The position numbers and the translations under genes are program-made. From NCBI GenBank assembly GCA_014804005.1, contig JAAVAP010000016.1, positions 106,751 through 170,750 on the forward strand: a stretch of DNA of 64,000 nucleotides, written 5' to 3'. This stretch comes from Treponema sp. GTDB taxonomy: Bacteria > Spirochaetota > Spirochaetia > Treponematales > Treponemataceae. Numbering within the stretch: position 1 is the first letter of the stretch; each line of letters starts with the position of its first letter. Of the stretch, positions 4,068 through 64,000 are shown one piece after another. A model generated the notes under the pieces. That model searched no databases and was not told the origin of the DNA. It worked only from the letters and a program-made list of their open reading frames with translations.

Positions 4068-4814
4068 TTATTTTTCGCATAAAAGCGAAACTTCGTCTGC
4101 CGTCATTTTTTTGTATTCGCCGGGCGCGAGATTTTCGTCCATCGCGAGCGCGCCAATTTGAACGCGCTTTAAATACAAAACTTCGTTTTCAAAAACGCGG
4201 AACATTCGTTTAACTTGATGAAATTTTCCTTCGCAAATCGTAAGAAAAACTTCGTTCGCATTTTCCGTGAATTCGATTTTTGCAGGAAGCGAAATGAATT
4301 CGCTTTCCGCGCCTTCCGCAGGAATTTGAAATCCGCGCGAAAATTTTTCACGCAAAACTTCGCGTTCATCGGAAGAAATATTTTTTTCCAAGCGCACGAA
4401 ATATTTTTTTTCGCACAAAGTTTTCGGCGAAATCAATTTGTGCGTGAGCGCGCCGTCAGTCGTAAAAATCAAAAGTCCTTCCGTGTCCGCATCGAGCCTG
4501 CCTACCAAATGCAAATGCGAAGCAAAATACGGCGTGCGATAATTTTCATCGAGCAGTTCGAACACGGTCTGTCTTTCCCCCTCCTTGGAAGTGCAAACAG
4601 TTCCTGCGATTTTGTTCATCATAAGATAGACATTTTTTTCGAGCGCGAGCGGATTTCCGTCCACGAGAATTTCATCGCGCTCCAAATCAATGTGCGCATC
4701 GGGCGCGTAAACAATTTCGCCATTCACGCTAACTGCGCCAGAATGCAAGATGCGTTTCACATCGCGCCGCGTTCCCAATCCAGCATGAGAAAGAATTTTG
4801 TCAAGCCGTTCCAT
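4068..4814 (-). CDS. rRNA pseudouridine synthase, RsuA/RluB family
   Basis: N-terminal S4 domain (MERLDKILSHAGLGTRRDVKRIL) and catalytic motif GRLDADTEGLL. Confidence 0.8.
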   Translation of the reverse strand: MERLDKILSHAGLGTRRDVKRILHSGAVSVNGEIVYAPDAHIDLERDEILVDGNPLALEKNVYLMMNKIAGTVCTSKEGERQTVFELLDENYRTPYFASHLHLVGRLDADTEGLLIFTTDGALTHKLISPKTLCEKKYFVRLEKNISSDEREVLREKFSRGFQIPAEGAESEFISLPAKIEFTENANEVFLTICEGKFHQVKRMFRVFENEVLYLKRVQIGALAMDENLAPGEYKKMTADEVSLLCEK

Positions 4815-19614: not shown

Positions 19615-19694
19615 AATTGCGCATTCACTTTAACACGAGTTTTGGCAATTTAAAAGCTGAAACTTTTCGCCGTTGAAAAATTGAGGGAACGAGA

Positions 19695-53264: not shown

Positions 53265-53276
53265 TTTTCCTCCTAA

Positions 53277-53379
53277 TAAAAAGTCAAGAAGAAAGTTTCA
53301 ACTTTATTCTTGACTTTTTACGCACATTCGCAACGCAGTGAGAATGTGCAATAAATATGCAAGTTTCCAACGGAAACTT
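53277..53379 (-). promoter_or_regulatory. Three stem-loops in the rnfE-rnfA spacer
   Basis: H1 at 53278-53319: 20-bp stem with one mismatch and a 2-nt loop. H2 at 53322-53349: 8-bp stem with a 12-nt loop. H3 at 53361-53379: 8-bp stem with a 3-nt loop. On the mRNA strand, H1 ends in UUUUU 4 nt before the rnfA SD. Confidence 0.5.
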
Positions 53380-53418
53380 GTCATGATAAGCGCCCGCGCT
53401 ATTTGTGCGGTGCATTTA

Positions 53419-55549: not shown

Positions 55550-56953
55550 TTATTTTGAATTTGATTGAGACTGCTGAACGGCGGCACGCGCCTTTTCTGC
55601 GGCAAGCCGCGCACGTTCCGCATTTTTTCCAAGCCGGATTATTTGCACAAGGCGAACCGTCGCCGGGCAAATGTAGGCGCACGAACCGCATTCAAAGCAA
55701 TCCATCAGTCCGTATTTTTTCGCATCTTCAAGCGAATCGGATTTTACCGAACGAATTATCATTACGGGAGTGAGACGCATCGGACAAACATCTACGCATT
55801 TTCCGCAGCCTATGCACGGCGAACTTTCCGTCGCGTCGATTTCGGCTTCCGTCAAAAACAAAATTCCGCTCGTGCCTTTGAGAATCGGGAATTCCGCGCT
55901 TTGCATCGAAAATCCCATCATCGGCCCGCCCGACAAAATTTTCGCGACATTTTCTTGCAGCTGGATTTCGCTGCCGACCAAATCGCTCACCAAAGTTCCA
56001 ATCGGCGCAAAAAGATTTTTCGGCTCTTTTACGCCCAAGCCGCTCACCGTAAAAGCGCGTTCGATCAAAGGCTTTCCTTCGCGGAACGCTTCGCTTATGG
56101 CGCAGACCGTGCCCACATTGCAGACGACGCAACCTGAGGCGGCAGGAAGTTTTCCGGCAGGAACTTCGCGCCCAGTTGCCGCAGAAATGATGTCCTTTTC
56201 CGCGCCCTGCGGATATTTCGTCTTTACGAGAATTATTTCTATTGAAACGCCTTTTTCGTCGCGGATTTTTTTCGCAGCCTCTTCAAGTTTCGGAACGAGA
56301 TGCGCCTTGTTGCTTTCCAAAACGATTCGAACATTGATTGAACTCGCTTCGCGTTCGTTGCACAAAGCGACGATTCTTTGCACAATCAAAAGTCCGTCCA
56401 TTACTTTTTCGGGCGTTTCGTCGAGAGTCTGCTCGTCCACCGTGAGATACGGCTCGCATTCCGCCGCGTTGAGCAAAATAAAATCAATCTTGCAATCTTT
56501 CGGCGGATTCAGCTTGACATGAGTGGGAAACGACGCGCCGCCCATTCCGCAAATGCCGGCATCCTTCACACGCGCCAAAGCCTCTTCGTGCAAACACGAA
56601 AAAGGATCGAGCGGCGGCATAAAATCAACGCGATTTTCTTCATCCGCCTGAATAACGATGCACGGAACTTCGGCGTTGGCGGTGGAAAGATTCGAAACGA
56701 TTTTTTTCACCGTGCCGCTCACAGGACTGTGAACGGGCGCGCTCACGAAAGCGTCGCTTTTTGCGATGATTTGCCCGCGCGAAACTTTTTGTCCCACTTC
56801 AACGACTGGAACATTCGGCGCGCCGCCCATCGTCACAGGAACGTAAAACATTTTTGAAGCCGGAAAAACTTTCGTAATTTTTTTTCCTTGGCACAATTCC
56901 TTATGCTCGGCAGGAAAAATTCCGCCTTTGAAAGTGCGCATATCTTCTCCCAT
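55550..56953 (-). CDS. rnfC: Rnf complex subunit C
   Basis: MGGASFPTHVKL, and two 4Fe-4S motifs (CIGCGKCVDVCP, CFECGSCAYICP). The start is either 56953 or, more likely, the ATG at 56941, which is preceded by GGGAGAAG. Confidence 0.9.
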   Translation of the reverse strand: MGEDMRTFKGGIFPAEHKELCQGKKITKVFPASKMFYVPVTMGGAPNVPVVEVGQKVSRGQIIAKSDAFVSAPVHSPVSGTVKKIVSNLSTANAEVPCIVIQADEENRVDFMPPLDPFSCLHEEALARVKDAGICGMGGASFPTHVKLNPPKDCKIDFILLNAAECEPYLTVDEQTLDETPEKVMDGLLIVQRIVALCNEREASSINVRIVLESNKAHLVPKLEEAAKKIRDEKGVSIEIILVKTKYPQGAEKDIISAATGREVPAGKLPAASGCVVCNVGTVCAISEAFREGKPLIERAFTVSGLGVKEPKNLFAPIGTLVSDLVGSEIQLQENVAKILSGGPMMGFSMQSAEFPILKGTSGILFLTEAEIDATESSPCIGCGKCVDVCPMRLTPVMIIRSVKSDSLEDAKKYGLMDCFECGSCAYICPATVRLVQIIRLGKNAERARLAAEKARAAVQQSQSNSK

Positions 56954-57375
56954 AAAAAAGCCGTGAGTGATTTTTTAGAATCGCGAATGGCTTTTTTACG
57001 TGCGTTTGCAATGAAATGAAAACGCACAAATTAAAATTGTAAAGTACTGAATATTCTTTTATTATATCACACAATCGCGGAAAAGAAAAGTGCTTTGTGT
57101 GAAATTATCAATGACTTGTTATATATTCGTCATTACAGCAAAGAATGTCGCGATATTCGTTCGCGTCTCTTTGCCCTGAAGAGCGGCCGTGCGGGATATT
57201 GAAACGGGGTTCCGCACAGCCGCTCTTGTGGCGGCTTAAAAAGGGCGACCTGCGAAATTTCCCGTTTCATGCAGGCCGTCCTTTTTATTTTTTTATCATT
57301 CTCAAAGTCCGGCGGGAAGAAATCGGTTCATTGGGCGGGCGGATTGTCCCGCCGGGTTTTGCCAAAGGAAGCATT

Positions 57376-58173
57376 ATGGTCATCACATTCTCAAGCATGA
57401 AAGGCGGCGTGGGAAAGTCCACCGACGCCATCCTGCTCGCCAACAACCTCGCGGCGCGCGGGTTCAGGGTCCTGTTCTTCGACATGGACACGAACAACTC
57501 CTCCACGATCTACTACACGCTGGGCATAGCCGACGAGTTCCCGACGCGGAACGTCGCGGAGGCGCTGACCCACAGGACGACGGAGGGCTACACGGTAAAG
57601 TCAAGGATCCCGAACGTGGACATCGTGCCGTCGTCGCTGCGGCTCTTCGACATCCGCTCGATCGACTACCACGCGCTGAAAAAGACCCTGCCGGACGGCA
57701 GGTATGATTTCGTCGTCATCGACACCGCGCCCACCTACGACAACCTCGTGATGAACGCGCTGTACGCGGCGGACTGCATATTCACCCCCGTCCAGCTCGA
57801 CTTCTTCAACATCACCACAACGAAATTCCTGCGCTCGCACCTATACGACGAACTTGCGGAACAGGTCGGCAAGTGGTTCATCTACTACACCTTCTGGCAG
57901 GATAACCTCGCGCCGTTCCCGCATTCCGTCCAGTCCCAGTACGCGGCGGTATTCGAGAGCGAATTCGACAACATCCTGAAAGACATCCAAATTCCGAAAA
58001 CTCCCGCGACGGCAAAATACACGCAGACCGACGTGAAAGTGAGCGTCCGCTCCCAAATGCTCGGAAGCCAGCGCCTTGCGGCCGCGTTCAACAGGCTCGC
58101 GAACCTCGTCACGCAGACTGAGCCCCAAAAGGACGGGGACGGGAACGAGATCTTTCCTGTGGAGAAATTCTAG
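57376..58173 (+). CDS. parA: ParA/Soj-family partition ATPase
   Basis: Deviant Walker A MKGGVGKST and Walker B-like VVIDTAP. AAAGGAAG precedes the ATG at 57376. The ORF-track extension from 57145 spans structured non-coding DNA. Confidence 0.85.
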   Translation: MVITFSSMKGGVGKSTDAILLANNLAARGFRVLFFDMDTNNSSTIYYTLGIADEFPTRNVAEALTHRTTEGYTVKSRIPNVDIVPSSLRLFDIRSIDYHALKKTLPDGRYDFVVIDTAPTYDNLVMNALYAADCIFTPVQLDFFNITTTKFLRSHLYDELAEQVGKWFIYYTFWQDNLAPFPHSVQSQYAAVFESEFDNILKDIQIPKTPATAKYTQTDVKVSVRSQMLGSQRLAAAFNRLANLVTQTEPQKDGDGNEIFPVEKF

Positions 58174-58187
58174 CCGGAGGAAGCACC

Positions 58188-59222
58188 ATGGCAAAGGAAA
58201 TAACATTTACCAAGCTTGGCGGCAAGGCTCCGTTCGCGGACGGCGGACTGAAACTCTCGAAATCAATCCTGATAGACAAAATCGAGCCGCACGAGGACTT
58301 CAAGTCCTTGTTCAGGATCGGGGACGAGCTTTTGGAGCGCATCACGAATTCAATCAGGGAAAATTCCTTCGACGCATCCCAGCCCCTGCACATATGGGCG
58401 AAAGCCGAGGACGACGGCAGCATCCACAACTACCTGATTGACGGCTACACGCGGCTGGAGGCTGCGAGGAACGCCGGGCTTGATACCGTCCCGTACTTCG
58501 AGCACAAGTTCGAGACATTCGACGAAGCGTACAAGTACGCATTGAGCCTGCAAGTGAACCGCCGCAACCTTGAGGGCGGAGAACTCCTGCGCAACGTGTC
58601 GAGGCTTTTGGGAACGGACTTCATCCAAAACGCGGAGGGCAAGAAGTCCGAGGCGATCGCGGAAGTGCTCGGCGTTTCCTCAAGGACGGTGGAGGAGGCG
58701 ATTTCCGTCGCCAAAAACGCGGACGAGGAGACACTCGCGGAAATCGACTCGGGCGAGAAGTCAGTCCACAAGGCCTACAAGGAGACAAAGAAAAAGCGGG
58801 AAAAGCGCGAGGTCGCGCCCGATGAGGACGATGGCGACGACTTCAACGACGCGACTTGGAAAGACGATGACGATGACTTCGGCGACATCTCCGACGCGCT
58901 CGGAGACAGCGAGGGGAATCCGCGCCAAGTCCATGTCCACAGCCGCGACATGACGGAGCGTCTCAGTCCGCCGGAGCAGAGCGACATCGACGCGCGGCTC
59001 ATCGAACGCTTCAAGGACGGCTTCGCCAGCGGCTTCAAAAGCGGGTTTTCGGAAGGCGCGTACCAAGTCTACGACAGGATGCTTTCCATGCTGAAGGACG
59101 GAAAGTCGGCCGCGGAAATCGAGGACAGCGAAATTTTTTCGGACTTCACGTTCACCGTGGCCGCGCCAAAATTTGACGTTCCCGCCGAGGACGGGGACAT
59201 CCTCAGAAAATTCAACAAGTAG
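58188..59222 (+). CDS. ParB/Srx-fold N-terminal domain protein with an HTH and an acidic C-terminal half
   Basis: IDGYTRLEAARNAGLDTVP (ParB N-domain-like), an HTH SEAIAEVLGVSSRTVEEAISVAK, and an acidic tract DEDDGDDFNDATWKDDDDDFGD. It follows parA by 14 nt. Confidence 0.65.
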   Translation: MAKEITFTKLGGKAPFADGGLKLSKSILIDKIEPHEDFKSLFRIGDELLERITNSIRENSFDASQPLHIWAKAEDDGSIHNYLIDGYTRLEAARNAGLDTVPYFEHKFETFDEAYKYALSLQVNRRNLEGGELLRNVSRLLGTDFIQNAEGKKSEAIAEVLGVSSRTVEEAISVAKNADEETLAEIDSGEKSVHKAYKETKKKREKREVAPDEDDGDDFNDATWKDDDDDFGDISDALGDSEGNPRQVHVHSRDMTERLSPPEQSDIDARLIERFKDGFASGFKSGFSEGAYQVYDRMLSMLKDGKSAAEIEDSEIFSDFTFTVAAPKFDVPAEDGDILRKFNK

Positions 59223-59233
59223 GAGAAGCAAAA

Positions 59234-59554
59234 ATGACGACGGAAGAAATTGAAATGAGAAGGGTCATCAAAGAAATGCTTTCAGATGTCGGAATCAACC
59301 GCGAGACGCTCAAACAAGCGGTAAAGGACATCTTGGAGGAAAAAATCAACAAGGCCATTGTAGACGCAATGCACGAGACAAGCGGCGGATCGACGGTCAA
59401 GGACAAAATCAACGATTACGTGGCAAGGCACGTGCGCTCGTTCTCTTTTGACGCTGAGTTCAGAAACGAAGTCGAGAAAGCCGTGAAGAAAGAGATGCAG
59501 GATTTTCGGATTAGCGCGGAGATAAAAAGGGAGACGCAGAATGAAAAAGACTGA
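59234..59554 (+). CDS. Hypothetical protein
   Basis: AGGAGAAG precedes the ATG. 106 aa, predicted helical and charged. Codon usage matches the element. Confidence 0.45.
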   Translation: MTTEEIEMRRVIKEMLSDVGINRETLKQAVKDILEEKINKAIVDAMHETSGGSTVKDKINDYVARHVRSFSFDAEFRNEVEKAVKKEMQDFRISAEIKRETQNEKD

Positions 59555-59759
59555 CATCCATCTGCTCAACGACCTGCAAAGGCGCGAGATTAGGGAAACG
59601 GCGTACAACGAGGTGTCGAACGAACACTCGTTTTTCTGCGTCTGCGGGAAACTTTGCTCCGGCTTTCACGAAAGCAGCTGCGGAAAATTCCGCGCGAAGG
59701 TCGAGAAGCGTTTTTTGAGCAAGTGCGAGGCGGAAATACGGCGACTCGGCTTATCCTAG
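59541..59759 (+). CDS. Hypothetical Cys-rich small protein
   Basis: 72 aa. It overlaps the previous ORF by 14 nt. It contains a cysteine-rich C.C...C......C run (CVCGKLCSGFHESSC). Confidence 0.4.
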   Translation: MKKTDIHLLNDLQRREIRETAYNEVSNEHSFFCVCGKLCSGFHESSCGKFRAKVEKRFLSKCEAEIRRLGLS

Positions 59760-59826
59760 CACATGCCATAATTTTGCAATAAAGAAACTGCGACATCAAA
59801 CTCGCGTATGAACGGGAGGTAGGAAC

Positions 59827-59931
59827 ATGAACAAAAAATACGTGAAAGAACGCATCGTGTGGACAGTGTGCAGGGAAATCGGACACCAAATATCGAGGTT
59901 CCTGCGGAAACTGGTTTTGGGGAAGAAATGA
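59827..59931 (+). CDS. Unannotated 34-codon ORF (below the ORF-track cutoff)
   Basis: GGGAGG lies 7 nt upstream of the ATG at 59827. It encodes MNKKYVKERIVWTVCREIGHQISRFLRKLVLGKK. Its TGA overlaps the next ATG (ATGA at 59928-59931). Confidence 0.3.
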   Translation: MNKKYVKERIVWTVCREIGHQISRFLRKLVLGKK

Positions 59932-60089
59932 CGGACTTTGTATTTAACGCAATAGGTGGCATATTCATCGTCCTCTTCATTCTTGGCTCCGTGGCGGGCA
60001 TCGTGGAAGCCTACTTGGAAAACAAAGAAAAAGACAAAAGGAGAGAAAAATGGCTCAAGGAAAGGACGGCGAAGAACACGACAGCGTAA
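59928..60089 (+). CDS. Small single-pass membrane protein
   Basis: MTDFVFNAIGGIFIVLFILGSVAGIVEAY followed by a basic tail. The start at 59928 is preferred over the ORF-track start at 59859. Confidence 0.4.
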   Translation: MTDFVFNAIGGIFIVLFILGSVAGIVEAYLENKEKDKRREKWLKERTAKNTTA

Positions 60090-60343
60090 GCCGCCCCGCG
60101 CACTACACGCGCGAGGGCGCGATGGAATGCATCGACGAGATGCTGCTCGTTTTCGGGTCGGCGGCAGTGAAAGACTTCTGCCTGCTGAACGCGTGGAAAT
60201 ACCGCTACCGCGCCGCCAAGAAGAACGGCGACGAGGACATGAGGAAGTCGGACTGGTACATGGCGAAGTACAAGGAACTGAAAGGCAGCCCCGGCATACG
60301 CCATAAAATTTTCCGGCGCAAGGGAAAGAGGCGAAGGACGTAA
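60050..60343 (+). CDS. DUF3310-like phage/plasmid protein
   Basis: RPAHYTREG.ECID...F..LNAWKYRYRA..KNG.EDMRKSDWYM matches my recollection of the DUF3310 pattern (HY...IE.ID...KY..R...K...DL.KA.WY). Confidence 0.6.
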   Translation: MAQGKDGEEHDSVSRPAHYTREGAMECIDEMLLVFGSAAVKDFCLLNAWKYRYRAAKKNGDEDMRKSDWYMAKYKELKGSPGIRHKIFRRKGKRRRT

Positions 60344-60346
60344 GGA

Positions 60347-61537
60347 ATGCGCTACAGCATTTTCGAGTATTCACAGGAAAAGCTTCTCGCCCTTGGCCTT
60401 GACGTGACGGACGCGCTGCTCCTGAACTGGTTCGCGAATTTCTTCTGCGGCAAGATGGAAAAGCAGATGTTCAAGGATGCCGACGGAAAAACGAAAATCT
60501 ACGGCTGGATAAAGACATCGAAAGTCATCGAGGACCTGCCCGTAATCGGCATCACGAGCGAAAAAGGCATTCGGAAGCGGCTCGACACGTTCGTCGAGAA
60601 AGGCATCCTTGACAGGAGAACTTTGTCCACACACAACGGGAAAAAATCGTACTACAGGACGACCTCAATCTACGAGTCGCTCATCAACACGACCGCAATC
60701 CAAAGAAACCATGAAAAAGAAAACGCCGCCTCGGAAAAACCCCGCGCGGGAGCGAAAAGCGAAAGCGCGGACGGAAACTGGCAAAGGAACGCCAGTACCT
60801 TTGCAAACTCCGAAAATGTCCGAAACGACCCGCAAAGGAACTCCAGTACCTATGGGCAAAGGAACGGCAGTACCCTTGCGCAAGGGAACTCCGGTTCCCT
60901 TGCTTTAAACGATTCCTTGACCAATGATAAATTCGTTAAGGATATTGCTGCTGCCGCCGAAAGGCATTTCGGCAAGAACGCTTTTGACCAGGGCTTCGCC
61001 CAAAAAGCGGCGGCGTTTCTTTCCTCACAGAACGTCTCCGACATCGACTTTTATTTCGCATTCATCAAGAACAAGGTGTCCGAAAAAATCTCGCTGTCAA
61101 AAAGCCCGGTCTCAAGCCCCCGCGGACTGGCGTACACGCTCTTCTTCCAGACCGACATAGCGCAAGAAGCAAATGACTGGCAGCAGCAGCTTTTTCTTGA
61201 AAGGCAGAGAGAGGCTGAACGGAAAGCCGCGGAGGAAAAGCGCAAGGTCGGCTGCCCCGTCTGCGGAACGCGCTTTATTCCAAAGCAGGACGGCTCCTGC
61301 CCCAAATGCGAATTCAGCGTGTCGCGCTTCCAAGACGAGGCGGAAATCCAAATCCACTCGCGGTTCGTAAGGCTTCCCGAAAAGTCAAAACAAGACTATG
61401 AGAGACGGCTCCGGCAAATTTATAAATTTGACATCGCAAAATTCATGGCGATGAGCAAGGAGGAAAAAGACGATTTTAGGTCGAAACAAAAAACTGACAA
61501 GAGCGTCCTTGACAGGGAGTTCGGACTGATTACGTAA
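60347..61537 (+). CDS. Putative replication initiator/organiser: N-terminal winged-helix-like domain, 8-aa repeat linker, C-terminal CxxC...CxxC zinc ribbon
   Basis: The N-terminal 110 aa or so resemble DnaD/phage replisome-organiser wHTH domains (tentative). The repeats are QRNASTFA/QRNSSTYG/QRNGSTLA/QGNSGSLA. The zinc ribbon is CPVCG...CPKCE. Confidence 0.45.
   Translation: MRYSIFEYSQEKLLALGLDVTDALLLNWFANFFCGKMEKQMFKDADGKTKIYGWIKTSKVIEDLPVIGITSEKGIRKRLDTFVEKGILDRRTLSTHNGKKSYYRTTSIYESLINTTAIQRNHEKENAASEKPRAGAKSESADGNWQRNASTFANSENVRNDPQRNSSTYGQRNGSTLAQGNSGSLALNDSLTNDKFVKDIAAAAERHFGKNAFDQGFAQKAAAFLSSQNVSDIDFYFAFIKNKVSEKISLSKSPVSSPRGLAYTLFFQTDIAQEANDWQQQLFLERQREAERKAAEEKRKVGCPVCGTRFIPKQDGSCPKCEFSVSRFQDEAEIQIHSRFVRLPEKSKQDYERRLRQIYKFDIAKFMAMSKEEKDDFRSKQKTDKSVLDREFGLIT
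60781..60903. repeat. Four 24-bp imperfect-palindrome repeats (one isolated, three in tandem)
   Basis: R1 60781-60804 gcaaaggaacgccagtacctttgc. R2 60832-60855 gcaaaggaactccagtacctatgg. R3 60856-60879 gcaaaggaacggcagtacccttgc. R4 60880-60903 gcaagggaactccggttcccttgc, which has 10-bp perfect arms. Confidence 0.85.
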
Positions 61538-61590
61538 GAAAAGCAATGCTCAAAGCATTGCGAAAAAATACCAACATTGGAGGCAAAGGA

Positions 61591-62046
61591 ATGTCGGATT
61601 TGAACACACTCACACTACAGGGAAGAATCGCGCGGGACGCGGTTGTTCAAACAACAAAAGCCGGAAAGCGGGTCGCGCTGTTCACGCTCGCCGTGAACCG
61701 GACGACAAAAAACGAGGGCGGAGATTATGTCGAACACGCGAACTTTTTTCCCGTGTCGGTTTTCGCCCAGTCGGACAAATTCGTCTCGTACCTCAAAAAA
61801 GGGCAGCCGCTCGTTTTGGAAGGCTACCTTAAGCAGGTGACAAAAAACCTCGGTCAAGGCGCGGACGGCAAACCGAAGTACGAGTCAAGGCTTTACATCT
61901 GCACCTCAAGAGTCCATTTTATTTGGACAGGCAAAAAAGACAACGCTCCGGCCGAGCCTCCCGAAAATTTCGACGAGGACATCATCCTCGACACGGAGGA
62001 TCCGTGCGAGGACGTGTTCCTGGGCGACGATGGCGGCATTTATTAG
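61591..62046 (+). CDS. ssb: Single-stranded DNA-binding protein
   Basis: GGAGG precedes the ATG at 61591. OB-fold pattern (LTLQGRIARDAVV...FFPVSVFAQ...LKKGQPLVLEGYL) and an acidic C-terminal tip DVFLGDDGGIY. Confidence 0.8.
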   Translation: MSDLNTLTLQGRIARDAVVQTTKAGKRVALFTLAVNRTTKNEGGDYVEHANFFPVSVFAQSDKFVSYLKKGQPLVLEGYLKQVTKNLGQGADGKPKYESRLYICTSRVHFIWTGKKDNAPAEPPENFDEDIILDTEDPCEDVFLGDDGGIY

Positions 62047-62314
62047 ATCCGCCTTGGCAGGCGGTCTCAGGCATGTTCTCGGTACGGTTCTCGGAAAACT
62101 GGCGGGGCTGCTGTATTTCTGCGACAGCCATTTTACCTATCTTGCAATATCGCTTTTTTGCGCGACAGGGAGCGCGTTGATTTTCCTGACGTGCTATTTG
62201 GGAAGATACGGCAAATATGACTGGTGGAACTGGAAAGGCAGGGCTTTGGGCAAAAGCATAAGGCTCTGCCTGCTCTTGCTTCTGCTGAAAAAAATTTTGG
62301 AGGTTGCAATATGA
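62030..62314 (+). CDS. Possible small membrane protein between the two SSB genes
   Basis: 94 aa with 2-3 hydrophobic segments. It overlaps the ssb 3' end by 17 nt, and its stop overlaps the next ATG. Coding status is uncertain. Confidence 0.3.
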   Translation: MAAFIRSALAGGLRHVLGTVLGKLAGLLYFCDSHFTYLAISLFCATGSALIFLTCYLGRYGKYDWWNWKGRALGKSIRLCLLLLLLKKILEVAI

Positions 62315-62661
62315 ATTCAATCACACTGCACGGAAGGCTGGCGAAAGACGCGACGGTCACTTTGGTAAATTCATGCGGCGTTGAGACTCCGCTCGTGACA
62401 TTCTCATTCATTGACGGAGGGCTTCCCTACCAAAAAAGCGAGCCGATGTTCATAGACGTTCACTTCATGAAGGAAGCGGCAATGCGCATTTTCGACTTCC
62501 TTAAAAAGGGAAAGGAAGTCGTGGTGTCGGGATGCCTGCGGAGCAAGAACTATGTGACGCAAGCCGGGGAGAAGAAACAAAAGTATTATGTTTCGGCTGA
62601 CTACGTAATGTTCACTGGAAAAGGAAGCGACGACGGGACTTCCCGTTCGGCCCATAATTAA
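62311..62661 (+). CDS. Second, divergent SSB-like OB-fold protein lacking the acidic tip
   Basis: GGAGGT precedes the ATG at 62311. The sequence ITLHGRLAKDATV...FIDVHFMKEAA...LKKGKEVVVSGCL follows the SSB OB-fold layout. Confidence 0.55.
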   Translation: MNSITLHGRLAKDATVTLVNSCGVETPLVTFSFIDGGLPYQKSEPMFIDVHFMKEAAMRIFDFLKKGKEVVVSGCLRSKNYVTQAGEKKQKYYVSADYVMFTGKGSDDGTSRSAHN

Positions 62662-62706
62662 CGCATTATTGTGTTTGGGCAAAACAAAATATGAGGAGCA
62701 AAAGCT

Positions 62707-63000
62707 ATGAAAGACTTCAGGGATTTTCAGAATGTCCGTATCATTACGCAGGAAGGGACGATCGCGAACGGCGACTACATTATGGACGATGTTGTCATCA
62801 GGTGCAGGAACGGTCTGCTCTGCGATCTGCCAGGAGAGGACGGCAACCTTATGCCCGCGATAGAGACGCGTGACGGCAACCACCGGGAGCACTGGAAAAA
62901 CGGTGTGCTTCACTGTGAGAACGCACCCGCCGTCGTGGACAACGCCGACGGCTACGAGCTTTGGTTTTTGGACGGAAAGGAATGTCCGCCGCAGAAATGA
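62707..63000 (+). CDS. Hypothetical protein
   Basis: 97-aa ORF with GAGGAG upstream and element-like codon usage. No family was recognised. Confidence 0.4.
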   Translation: MKDFRDFQNVRIITQEGTIANGDYIMDDVVIRCRNGLLCDLPGEDGNLMPAIETRDGNHREHWKNGVLHCENAPAVVDNADGYELWFLDGKECPPQK

Positions 63001-63037
63001 TTTTTTGAGAACCTTAATTTTCTAATGGAGAAAGAAT

Positions 63038-63883
63038 ATGGTCAACGAAGAAAACGCCGTTCAGCCGGAAGAAGAATATGAAAGAAATTTGCCCGCGCAA
63101 AAGGAAATGGCGAAATTGCAGGCAAGCGCGCGCCAGCCGAACATTCAGTTTCCCGTCAAGGAAAAACAAGAGATTGTGCCTTCCAATAAAGAAACTCAGT
63201 CCGCGCTTGAAAAGGCTGTCATCGCGCTTTCGGAAGAACTCGCGAACGTGTCGGAACTCAAGGACGCATTGGAACAGTCGCTCAACGACAAGAACGTCGC
63301 CGATGACGAATTCCAGTCGGAAGTGACCGCCTATTTCAATTCGCTGCGGAAGCAGTTTGACGAATTCAACGAAAAGTTTTCAAGGGAAATCGACTATGCC
63401 CGCGAACTCGATTTGAAGATTCAGAACAACGAATACAGGGGGCAGATTTACCTTTTGGAAAAAGCGCTGGACGCGGAAAGGGCGAAAATCACCATCGCGT
63501 TGGACGACATCACGAAAACCGTCAAGGAAAAATTGCTGCTTGTTTCCGACAAGTGCCTTGAGCTGAAGTCTGCGGACAATCTCATCGAGGAGTCGATAAT
63601 GAAGTTCCGTTCGGATTCGATGTCCGCCTCCGAAAACGAATACAGAGCGTTGAGACAGAATTGCGAGGCAGGTCTCAGGCTTTTTACGGAGAACGCGCAA
63701 AAGACATTGGAAACGGTAAAGAAACGCTCCGTCGATTTCATCACGCAATGCGAGAAAGAAAACAAGGCGCTCATAAAGAACGTCCCATCAGTAAAAGGAA
63801 AGCTCACGGCGGAAAACTGGATTGTCGTTGTGTTCGGCTGTGTCGGAATCGCGAGCCTCATCGTGCGGCTGTTCATGGGGTAA
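63038..63883 (+). CDS. Coiled-coil protein with a C-terminal transmembrane anchor
   Basis: GGAGAAAG precedes the ATG. Long heptad-like helical segments rich in E/K/L are followed by a C-terminal WIVVVFGCVGIASLIVRLFMG. Confidence 0.5.
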   Translation: MVNEENAVQPEEEYERNLPAQKEMAKLQASARQPNIQFPVKEKQEIVPSNKETQSALEKAVIALSEELANVSELKDALEQSLNDKNVADDEFQSEVTAYFNSLRKQFDEFNEKFSREIDYARELDLKIQNNEYRGQIYLLEKALDAERAKITIALDDITKTVKEKLLLVSDKCLELKSADNLIEESIMKFRSDSMSASENEYRALRQNCEAGLRLFTENAQKTLETVKKRSVDFITQCEKENKALIKNVPSVKGKLTAENWIVVVFGCVGIASLIVRLFMG

Positions 63884-63888
63884 TATTT

Positions 63889-64000
63889 ATGGAAGACATC
63901 GAAACCGTAAAGCGCAGGGTGAGGAAACTGCTCGCCCTGTCAAAATCCCCGAACGAGAACGAGGCGGTGTCCGCCCTGCAAAAGGCGAACGCGCTCATGG
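63889..64000 (+). CDS. DUF2786-like protein, N-terminal fragment (3' end cut by window edge)
   Basis: MEDIETVKRRVRKLLALSKSPNENEAVSALQKANALM matches the DUF2786 N-terminal pattern (..KLLAL..S.NENEA..AL.KA..LM). Confidence 0.5.
   Translation, partial: MEDIETVKRRVRKLLALSKSPNENEAVSALQKANALM

Follow-up and report, generated by a model that had tools for sequence, protein, structure and literature searches.

The DNA analysed here is a 64,000-nucleotide stretch of the Treponema sp. contig JAAVAP010000016.1 (hereafter the window). Its chromosomal part includes a transfer-messenger RNA (tmRNA) gene and the rnf operon, and it is followed by a block of co-oriented genes that is a mobile element with a left end defined to the base. 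The element begins at position 57106 on the plus strand (TATCAATGACTTGTTATATATTCG / TATCAATGACTTG), on the upstream side of rnfC and 153-165 bp from its start codon. In our judgement the block is probably a module for maintenance and establishment that forms the left-hand part of a conjugative element integrated at that place. A conjugative nature is suggested by the type IV secretion system (T4SS) genes to which the same block is linked in its relatives L074 and L075 and in the plasmid pTRESU01; the window copy would possess a T4SS, a relaxase and a recombinase of its own. The source contig (176 kb; ENA ERZ27267594 k119_18286, with an NCBI twin that belongs to a metagenome-assembled Treponema sp. 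genome and bears locus tags HDR35_) stops 6.4 kb past the window, inside a large minus-strand gene. Gene calls were made on this contig, and profile searches used Pfam, PHROGs and NCBIfam/TIGRFAM. For annotation, this means that the whole sequence between 57106 and the end of the contig counts as mobile DNA and does not belong to the rnf locus.

The position of the left end follows from copies of the element found elsewhere. Two loci from other samples (L080 and L081) contain the same element, its genes in identical order, within chromosomal surroundings unrelated to those of the window, one adjoining a DUF6261 gene and the other ctpB, rsmE and wecG. Each is 98.2-98.6% identical to the window DNA across 6.9 kb, and identity among the three starts at one shared base, 57106, to the left of which the flanks are unrelated. 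The preliminary description, made from the letters of the window, had set the start of a foreign block at 57170; the block stands, and its true left boundary lies 64 bp further left. An exact look-up of the conserved 97-aa open reading frame (ORF) of the element, named orf97 hereafter, returned 23 contigs. L076 and L077, relatives of the same sub-family whose ParA is 79-87% identical, show a similar terminus and add two contexts. A distant sub-family (Rep 43% identical) occupies at least five chromosomal contexts, and in still other relatives the neighbour is an intact tRNA-Met, the 3' half of a tRNA or orphan tRNA-Pro(UGG) 3' halves. These varied contexts, together with the tRNA sites, point to a family with several integration specificities, in which the sub-family of the window shows low site specificity. 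One might suspect that a free plasmid was misjoined to the chromosome during assembly, as contigs from other samples stop near the junction and the contigs of several relatives end at the left terminus. Such breaks are nevertheless expected where an element that uses several insertion sites ends; moreover, assemblies made independently place three different chromosomal flanks next to this one terminal base, and relatives lie within contigs as long as 611 kb, which makes an artefact very improbable.

Several further observations concern the ends of these elements. The orphan tRNA-Pro(UGG) 3' halves are cut at the same position (directly after ...CTGGTCCCAAACC) and abut two sub-families, in L032 at about 19620-19670 (minus-strand coordinates) and in L069 at about 4650-4700. 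The shared cut position implies a tRNA-Pro-specific integration module, and an intact tRNA is expected at the far end. The outermost part of the left end in the distant sub-family (L008-L011, L067 and L072) is a segment of 79 bp (GGTAGATTGTAATATCAAGTTGAAACAAG...), which recurs with 94% identity and in the same orientation in L024 (11998-12076), just after one of the large polyvalent genes discussed below, which there lies downstream of VirB4/VirB6. This segment seems to mark a module boundary and is possibly an attachment site, an origin of transfer (oriT) or a promoter. A terminal inverted repeat was considered and rejected: the left-end 18-mer of the distant sub-family is nowhere present in inverted form, and its one direct copy follows the polyvalent gene of L024. 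At the window's own junction, a promoter-like match (ATGACG-18-GATAAT, 57104-57133, minus strand) is the sole one placed to drive rnfC. It falls almost wholly within the first 28 bp of the element, so that the insertion may have replaced or supplied the rnfC promoter. The left end of L081 likewise faces a divergent gene, ctpB, 69 bp off.

The linkage to conjugation genes is direct in two close relatives. In L074 (ParA 78% identical; a 148-kb contig) and L075, whose ParA proteins share 78-80% identity with that of the window, the same-strand block runs directly into T4SS genes and continues with a NikA-like ribbon-helix-helix protein, VirB11, VirB3, VirB4, a 345-aa protein and TrbL/VirB6. A more remote counterpart is found on pTRESU01, a closed plasmid of T. 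succinifaciens DSM 2489 (NC_015386.1). It carries, in the same order as the window, ParA, a ParB-like protein (51% identical, annotated as 'ParB N-terminal domain-containing protein'), a Rep-like protein, a single-stranded DNA-binding protein (SSB), orf97 (57%) and the coiled-coil protein (27%). The block converges there on a T4SS region that encodes a coupling protein and a topoisomerase besides VirB2/3/4/6/8/9/10/11. A homologue of the 807-aa protein described below is present on the plasmid as well, beside SNF2, LPD16 and ArdC polyvalent genes. PLSDB typing of pTRESU01 gave no recognised relaxase. The two systems differ in that the pTRESU01 block resides on a 165.6-kb plasmid with a separate RepA_C replicon, whereas that of the window is chromosomal, and in that the plasmid's Rep is 22% identical to ours and its parA leader is devoid of the kissing-loop structure presented below. 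The second replicon of pTRESU01 (150337-152494, L079), made of a ParA-like ATPase, a 123-aa protein and a RepA_C-domain protein, adjoins the block, so that the conjugation region may itself be an element that joined the plasmid.

Past the window, five small ORFs are followed on the opposite strand by a polyvalent protein with a MuF_C domain and then by a giant protein that exceeds 2,000 aa and combines an Eco57I-type methylase with LPD16 and SNF2 domains. The preliminary description had anticipated that defence or anti-defence cargo might lie beyond the window, and these methylase, SNF2 helicase, LPD16 and MuF_C polyvalent proteins are cargo of the anti-defence type. MuF_C corresponds to the PBECR domain, which phages as well as T4SS elements are known to carry (PMC5512222). 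The family resembles the polyvalent proteins of that study in its combinations of MuF_C/PBECR, Eco57I-type methylase, SNF2, LPD16/25/29, YodL and RadC/JAB domains and in its lengths of 1,100-3,700 aa; it departs from them here in that the genes lie outside the window and that one is split in the window copy (807 plus at least 326 aa, against a single ORF of 1436-1447 aa in L080 and L081). The split takes the form of overlapping ORFs at L001 15474-15511 (about window 68511-68548) and reflects either a frameshift or an assembly error in the window copy. Related polyvalent genes are found directly downstream of VirB4/VirB6 in two loci from other Treponema genomes (L023 and L024), and one in L027 stands beside a MobA/VirD2 relaxase, VirB8, VirB9 and topoisomerase III. 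Homologues of the giant gene and of the MuF_C proteins otherwise lie on contigs that break in the same genes or belong to unrelated remnants. As contigs break systematically in these repetitive genes, contig size does not give element size.

The centre of the module is the gene for a 396-aa protein, Rep (60347-61537, plus strand), which resembles replication initiators or replisome organisers. A putative winged-helix domain makes up the N-terminus (residues 1-115); it is followed by a disordered linker (117-189) and by a C-terminal part that is helical and contains a CxxC...CxxC zinc ribbon. In the AlphaFold model, the N-terminal domain is confident, residues 117-189 are disordered with a predicted local distance difference test (pLDDT) score below 50, and the C-terminal part is helical. 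We collected 117 homologues, and all those with an organism name are from Treponema. Residues 1-115 resemble phage replication initiators, DnaD-like loaders and proteins of Clostridium phage-plasmids; an exhaustive search recovered this domain in more than 1,000 cluster representatives, among which the full-length architecture is rare. Pfam named no family in any of 26 Rep family members, nor a domain in this region of relatives that share the N-terminal domain alone, one of which bears Phg_2220_C. Of the 62 families listed for these 26 members, the 25 most frequent do not include RepA_N, and the pTRESU01 homologue has a weak match to DnaD_N (0.0016).

Inside rep, at 60780-60903, four iteron-like dyad-symmetric repeats (GCAAAGGAAC-N5-TACCTTTGC) are spaced by 51, 24 and 24 bp. 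Repeats occur at the same gene position in all six relatives examined, with three to five copies each, and they keep a 24-bp phasing or multiples of it in five of these, L032 being irregular. Their sequences differ between elements, and, according to the protein alignment and the AlphaFold model, they encode the poorly conserved disordered linker. Since dyad symmetry in the DNA is unexpected from selection at the protein level, the repeats are best read as iterons, and together they probably constitute the origin of replication. A similar organisation has been established for pSK41, whose RepA binds through its N-terminal ∼120 aa to four Rep boxes located centrally within rep, while its linker (residues 121-199) is origin-encoded and dispensable and its fold is DnaD-like (PMC5703833). 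In the RepA_N theta replicons at large, the C-terminal domain is conserved within a host group alone, and the replicon is carried by conjugative plasmids (PMC5703833). The Treponema protein matches this scheme in the extent of its N-terminal domain, in the four repeats central to the gene and in the linker that these repeats encode. By analogy, it would thus work like the RepA_N initiator of pSK41, although it stands apart from that family by sequence. It further differs in the zinc ribbon of its C-terminal half and in the dyad symmetry and 24-bp phasing of its repeats. No antisense RNA was identified upstream of rep. In lambda O and SPP1 G38P, dyad-symmetric iterons likewise lie inside the initiator coding sequence and encode a flexible linker. 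Our protein shares with them the iterons in its own gene and relatives of its N-terminal domain that are annotated as phage replication initiators; it differs by its conjugative context and by the lack of a recognisable partner helicase-loader gene beside rep. Besides its biological role, rep with its internal repeats represents a compact candidate replicon for genetic tools in Treponema, a genus that is notoriously hard to manipulate.

A number of observations weigh against a conjugative element with a Rep of this type. The structural resemblance of Rep is loose: the top Foldseek matches (4pql, 5kbj and 4pt7, the RepA N-terminal domain of pSK41/pTZ2162, and 2v79, the DnaD N-terminal domain) are weak, with E values of 0.05-0.2 and TM-scores of 0.36-0.51 on the target, and the window Rep had no match to RepA_N (PF06970) at E≤1. 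An empty rnfC site was not found among the other contigs with an identical rnfC, which end at or near the junction: of two with identical RnfC, one ends at window 57208 and the other at 57029, and as the first still holds 100 bp of the element, neither represents an empty site. No T4SS, relaxase, oriT, recombinase or right end was seen for the window copy, whose contig ends inside a polyvalent gene, and no T4SS gene is present in the 5 kb upstream of the related giant gene in L021. The split of the polyvalent gene means that the window copy may be partly decayed. Lastly, DUF3310, DUF2786, the Rep N-terminal domain and MuF_C are commoner in phages.

Three further explanations draw on these points. 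Some of them would suit an integrative mobilizable element, of which the replication, partition and polyvalent genes would form the whole (about 25-30 kb) and which would borrow a T4SS from co-resident elements: a size of 24-30 kb is common among Rep-bearing contigs, none of the contigs with the exact element showed a T4SS gene, and L021 has none in the 5 kb upstream of its giant gene. We consider this unlikely, given that contigs break in the repetitive polyvalent genes and their size is no guide to that of the element, that L080 and L081 extend 32-37 kb beyond the part read, and that both the close relatives with 78-80% identical ParA and pTRESU01 hold T4SS genes within the same element. The split polyvalent gene could, in turn, mean that the block is one end left behind by an element that has lost its mobility; the chances of such a decaying remnant are slim, however, as all 13 of its genes in the window are intact and near-identical copies are present at other sites and on 23 contigs.

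The phage question was raised by the preliminary description itself, which had left a choice between an integrated plasmid, a phage-plasmid and the early region of a prophage. For an early replication region of a prophage or phage-plasmid speak the PHROG matches obtained for most genes, the resemblance of the Rep N-terminal domain to initiators of Clostridium phages and to proteins of Clostridium phage-plasmids, and a MuF_C domain named after a phage head protein. Yet no virion gene (major capsid, terminase, portal or tail) was detected by Pfam or PHROGs in 16.4 kb of the contig, and about 80 related loci yielded no structural or lysis gene either. No relatives were retrieved from IMG/VR with Rep, a distant Rep or the ParB-like protein as query, and blastn against 50,697 phage records gave no DNA match. 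MuF_C/PBECR is also found in T4SS elements (PMC5512222), and the relatives of the block are linked to a T4SS. A phage origin is hence already largely refuted and carries very low probability. A Mu-like transposable phage, to which MuF_C and the many insertion sites had directed attention, was rejected, as neither transposase nor virion genes were seen and T4SS genes were found in their stead; no integrase or transposase was found in the 16.4 kb of source contig or in the 20-kb loci L080 and L081. Among the three options, the integrated plasmid came closest, and the two phage-related ones fell away. In the same vein, the earlier view of a replicon-like module holds for its foreign and mobile character, its partition genes, its initiator with a probable origin and its SSBs, but not for a phage nature. 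An integrated conjugative element thus remains, in our view, the probable identity of the block.

The foreign character of the block is marked at the codon level. The GC content at third codon positions (GC3) of its genes (n=10, pooled) is 0.715, compared with 0.530 +/- 0.072 and a maximum of 0.654 for 45 long chromosomal ORFs; eight of the ten genes exceed this maximum, with values of 0.861 for ParA, 0.783 for the ParB-like protein and 0.796 for DUF3310. This bears out the switch to G/C-ending codons given in the preliminary description. Bulk GC is 0.44-0.51 in the chromosome, 0.55-0.61 across parA/parB (57.4-59.2 kb) and ∼0.50 in the remaining module; as it is clearly raised across parA/parB alone, the term 'compositionally foreign' is just weakly visible in raw GC. 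The long antisense ORFs attributed to this composition do exist (156-192 aa). The estimate of at least 14 ORFs on one strand was close, 13 same-strand genes being called in the window and 18 when 5 kb beyond are included, and the visible 6.8 kb indeed holds no integrase, capsid or conjugation gene. Profile searches likewise upheld the gene content proposed from the letters: ParA, a ParB-fold protein, DUF3310, a repeat-bearing initiator, two SSBs and DUF2786. The tail-anchored coiled-coil protein was also well described, as the sequence of this 281-aa protein ends in a 21-residue hydrophobic stretch.

Upstream of parA, a structured leader (57179-57296, plus strand) is conserved in nine relatives with covarying stems. 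Its first hairpin, P1 (57189-57217, extended to 57179-57227), exposes in its loop a boxA sequence, UGAAACGGG, at 57200-57208. The second, P2 (57219-57235), contains U.G pairs that are workable on the plus strand only. The third, P3 (57243-57281), is long and terminator-like, displays boxA' (CCCGUUUCA, 57261-57269) in its loop and is followed by a T-run at 57282-57296. A further plus-strand hairpin, P4 (57309-57355), is located just before the parA ribosome-binding site; its stem covaries, and its loop bears the motif TGGGCGGGCGGA at 57332-57343. The boxA and boxA' loops are complementary over 7-11 bp in 9/9 relatives examined. Five versions of the loop pair exist, each with its matching partner (GAAACGGG, AACGGGU, GAAUGGGA, UAUCCUGG and GUUGGGU), and shuffled loops attain the observed pairing length in 0-460 of 20,000 trials per sequence. 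Each element has a single copy of the 12-mer TGGGCGGGCGGA of P4, which in every case lies on the plus strand, 35-55 nt before parA, with an invariant loop GGGCRGGCRGA. Across the left end of the element, at 57099-57127, lies a promoter-like site.

An RNAalifold proposal in which boxA pairs with the P2 region was rejected because it lacks covariation in L074, L076 and L069. The leader had no match in Rfam 15 at E≤1 or at the gathering score. No candidate for parS centromere repeats was identified; the one conserved motif upstream of parA, TGGGCRGGCRGA, is present in a single copy per element. Its match in L027 falls inside the virB8 coding sequence and was taken as chance. Palindromes of the form GGTGCAA-N-GTTGCACC, which look like operator sites, occur in three copies between P3 and P4 in L075 (∼160-330) and in one copy in L074.

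Judging from these sequence patterns, the leader most probably gates transcription into parA as an attenuator, its terminator being stabilised or sensed via the loop-loop helix. Less probably, it is a small RNA in its own right or acts, once the DNA has been transferred, as a signal in single-stranded form. As a regulatory RNA, the leader is a new candidate. A broader and more tentative proposal, which we hold with less than even confidence, joins two statements: that the ∼120-nt leader is a new class of cis-regulatory RNA, and that an unseen recombinase performs precise insertion at many unrelated sites. On the first, the RNA would gate the maintenance operon of spirochaete conjugative elements, and one possibility is that parA, rep and ssb are expressed solely in the excised or newly transferred state. 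On the second, the unseen recombinase of this sub-family may be unusual.

The leader opens an operon whose co-oriented genes follow in the order parA, parB-like, small ORFs, DUF3310, rep, two ssb, orf97, coiled-coil and DUF2786 and which converges on the giant polyvalent genes. All genes of the operon lie on the plus strand. The parA gene (57376-58173) encodes a 265-aa ATPase of the ParA/Soj type with a deviant Walker A motif (KGGVGKS). Pfam AAA_31 (2e-26), CbiA and MipZ are above their cut-offs, VirC1 is weak, the PHROG ParA-like match reaches 8e-38, and the NCBIfam equivalog models are below cut-off, as for ParA_partition (1.6e-18). It is followed by the ParB-fold protein (58188-59222, 344 aa), with a putative helix-turn-helix and an acidic C-terminal half, which matches a ParB-like PHROG (1.5e-12), TIGR00180 below cut-off (1e-6) and, weakly by sequence, the pNOB8 ParB domain protein 5k5d of the PDB. 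It has no Pfam ParB_N match, and its motif reads DGYTRLEAAR in place of GERRxRA. Four small ORFs of 106, 72, 34 and 53 aa (59234-60089), taken from the gene calls, have no family match besides a weak PHROG of unknown function. The DUF3310 protein (60050-60343, 97 aa; Pfam 3e-13) corresponds to PHROGs labelled 'nucleotide kinase, C-terminal part'. Beyond rep, ssb1 (61591-62046, 151 aa) matches Pfam SSB (2.4e-16) and TIGR00621 above its cut-off, and ssb2 (62311-62661, 116 aa; Pfam SSB 5e-10) encodes a protein without the C-terminal tail. The family hallmark orf97 occupies 62707-63000. The coiled-coil protein (63038-63883) has a C-terminal hydrophobic anchor and no family match in Pfam or PHROG, and its position is kept in all relatives. 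The gene for the DUF2786+DUF7168 protein starts at 63889 and is cut by the window end at 64000; its full version on the source contig encodes 220 aa, with matches to Pfam DUF7168 (8e-15), DUF2786 (1.6e-12) and PHROG 421. Syntenic elements differ in cargo, for which the hot spots are before rep and after DUF2786 (L013 7358-9114, L086 5208-5990, L019 6172-7434 and L074 2743-3129); the types found are an AAA_15/AAA_21 ATPase with a small partner, a PAPS-reductase-like protein, a C-5 cytosine methylase and DUF4406.

Taken together, these genes outline how such a conjugative element could be maintained. After excision or in a new host, Rep would bind the four iterons of its own gene via its winged-helix N-terminal domain, and its C-terminal part would recruit the host primosome, as proposed here on the model of the pSK41 RepA_N protein. 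ParA and the ParB-fold protein would prevent the loss of a low-copy circular form, a role for which Soj in PAPI-1 maintenance provides a precedent (PMC2704930). The SSBs may coat transferred single-stranded DNA, and the polyvalent proteins (methylase, SNF2 helicase, MuF_C/PBECR and LPD16, with RadC/JAB in relatives) may blunt the restriction of the recipient. Transcription of parA would be gated by the leader, in which the terminator-like hairpin is predicted to be tied to the upstream hairpin by the covarying loop-loop helix. Integration itself is low in site specificity for the sub-family of the window and would depend on a recombinase that is not among the genes read.

Integrated conjugative elements are themselves familiar, whereas those of spirochaetes are almost undescribed; our literature searches found no paper on Treponema integrative conjugative elements (ICEs) or on the pTRESU01 transfer region. 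With ICEs of the PAPI-1/pKLC102 type, the block shares a ParA-type gene beside one attachment end and, for some Treponema relatives, a location at tRNA genes. It differs from them in that its T4SS would be VirB/MPF_T-like (from the PLSDB typing of pTRESU01) and by the non-tRNA sites of the window's sub-family, and there is no sequence relationship except for ParA. The leading regions of conjugative plasmids are another point of comparison, as they consist of small ORFs on one strand with SSB genes and methylase or anti-restriction functions (PMC11541004). The one-strand run of small ORFs with SSB genes recalls them, a likeness that is a lead only since oriT was not located. Unlike those regions, the block has a leader that looks like a terminator-type RNA instead of an Frpo hairpin with -35/-10 boxes, and it unites rep and parAB in the same operon. 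The family occurs widely in gut Treponema, with mice, humans, ruminants, horses and birds as hosts, and has a core made of the leader, ParA, the ParB-fold protein, Rep with in-gene iterons, two SSBs, orf97 and the coiled-coil protein, and with giant anti-restriction proteins and exchangeable integration behaviour as further marks. Two of its features deserve to be singled out, namely the probable origin inside rep and the covarying kissing-loop leader.

Finally, two observations relate to the chromosomal part of the window. The tmRNA gene is located at 1906-2285 on the plus strand (133 bits) and encodes the tag peptide AKRKEDEESYNEQLALAA. In the rnf operon, two sub-threshold matches to Rfam TD-1, a motif known from Treponema denticola, were obtained on the minus strand, in keeping with the assignment of the contig to Treponema. 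The first (53274-53391) scores 52.5 bits against a gathering score of 64.5 and lies in the gap between two genes of the Rnf-Nqr family; the second (56948-57068) scores 26.8 bits and is placed directly upstream of rnfC, in its 5' untranslated region. Their locations suggest a TD-1-like cis-regulatory RNA in the rnf operon.

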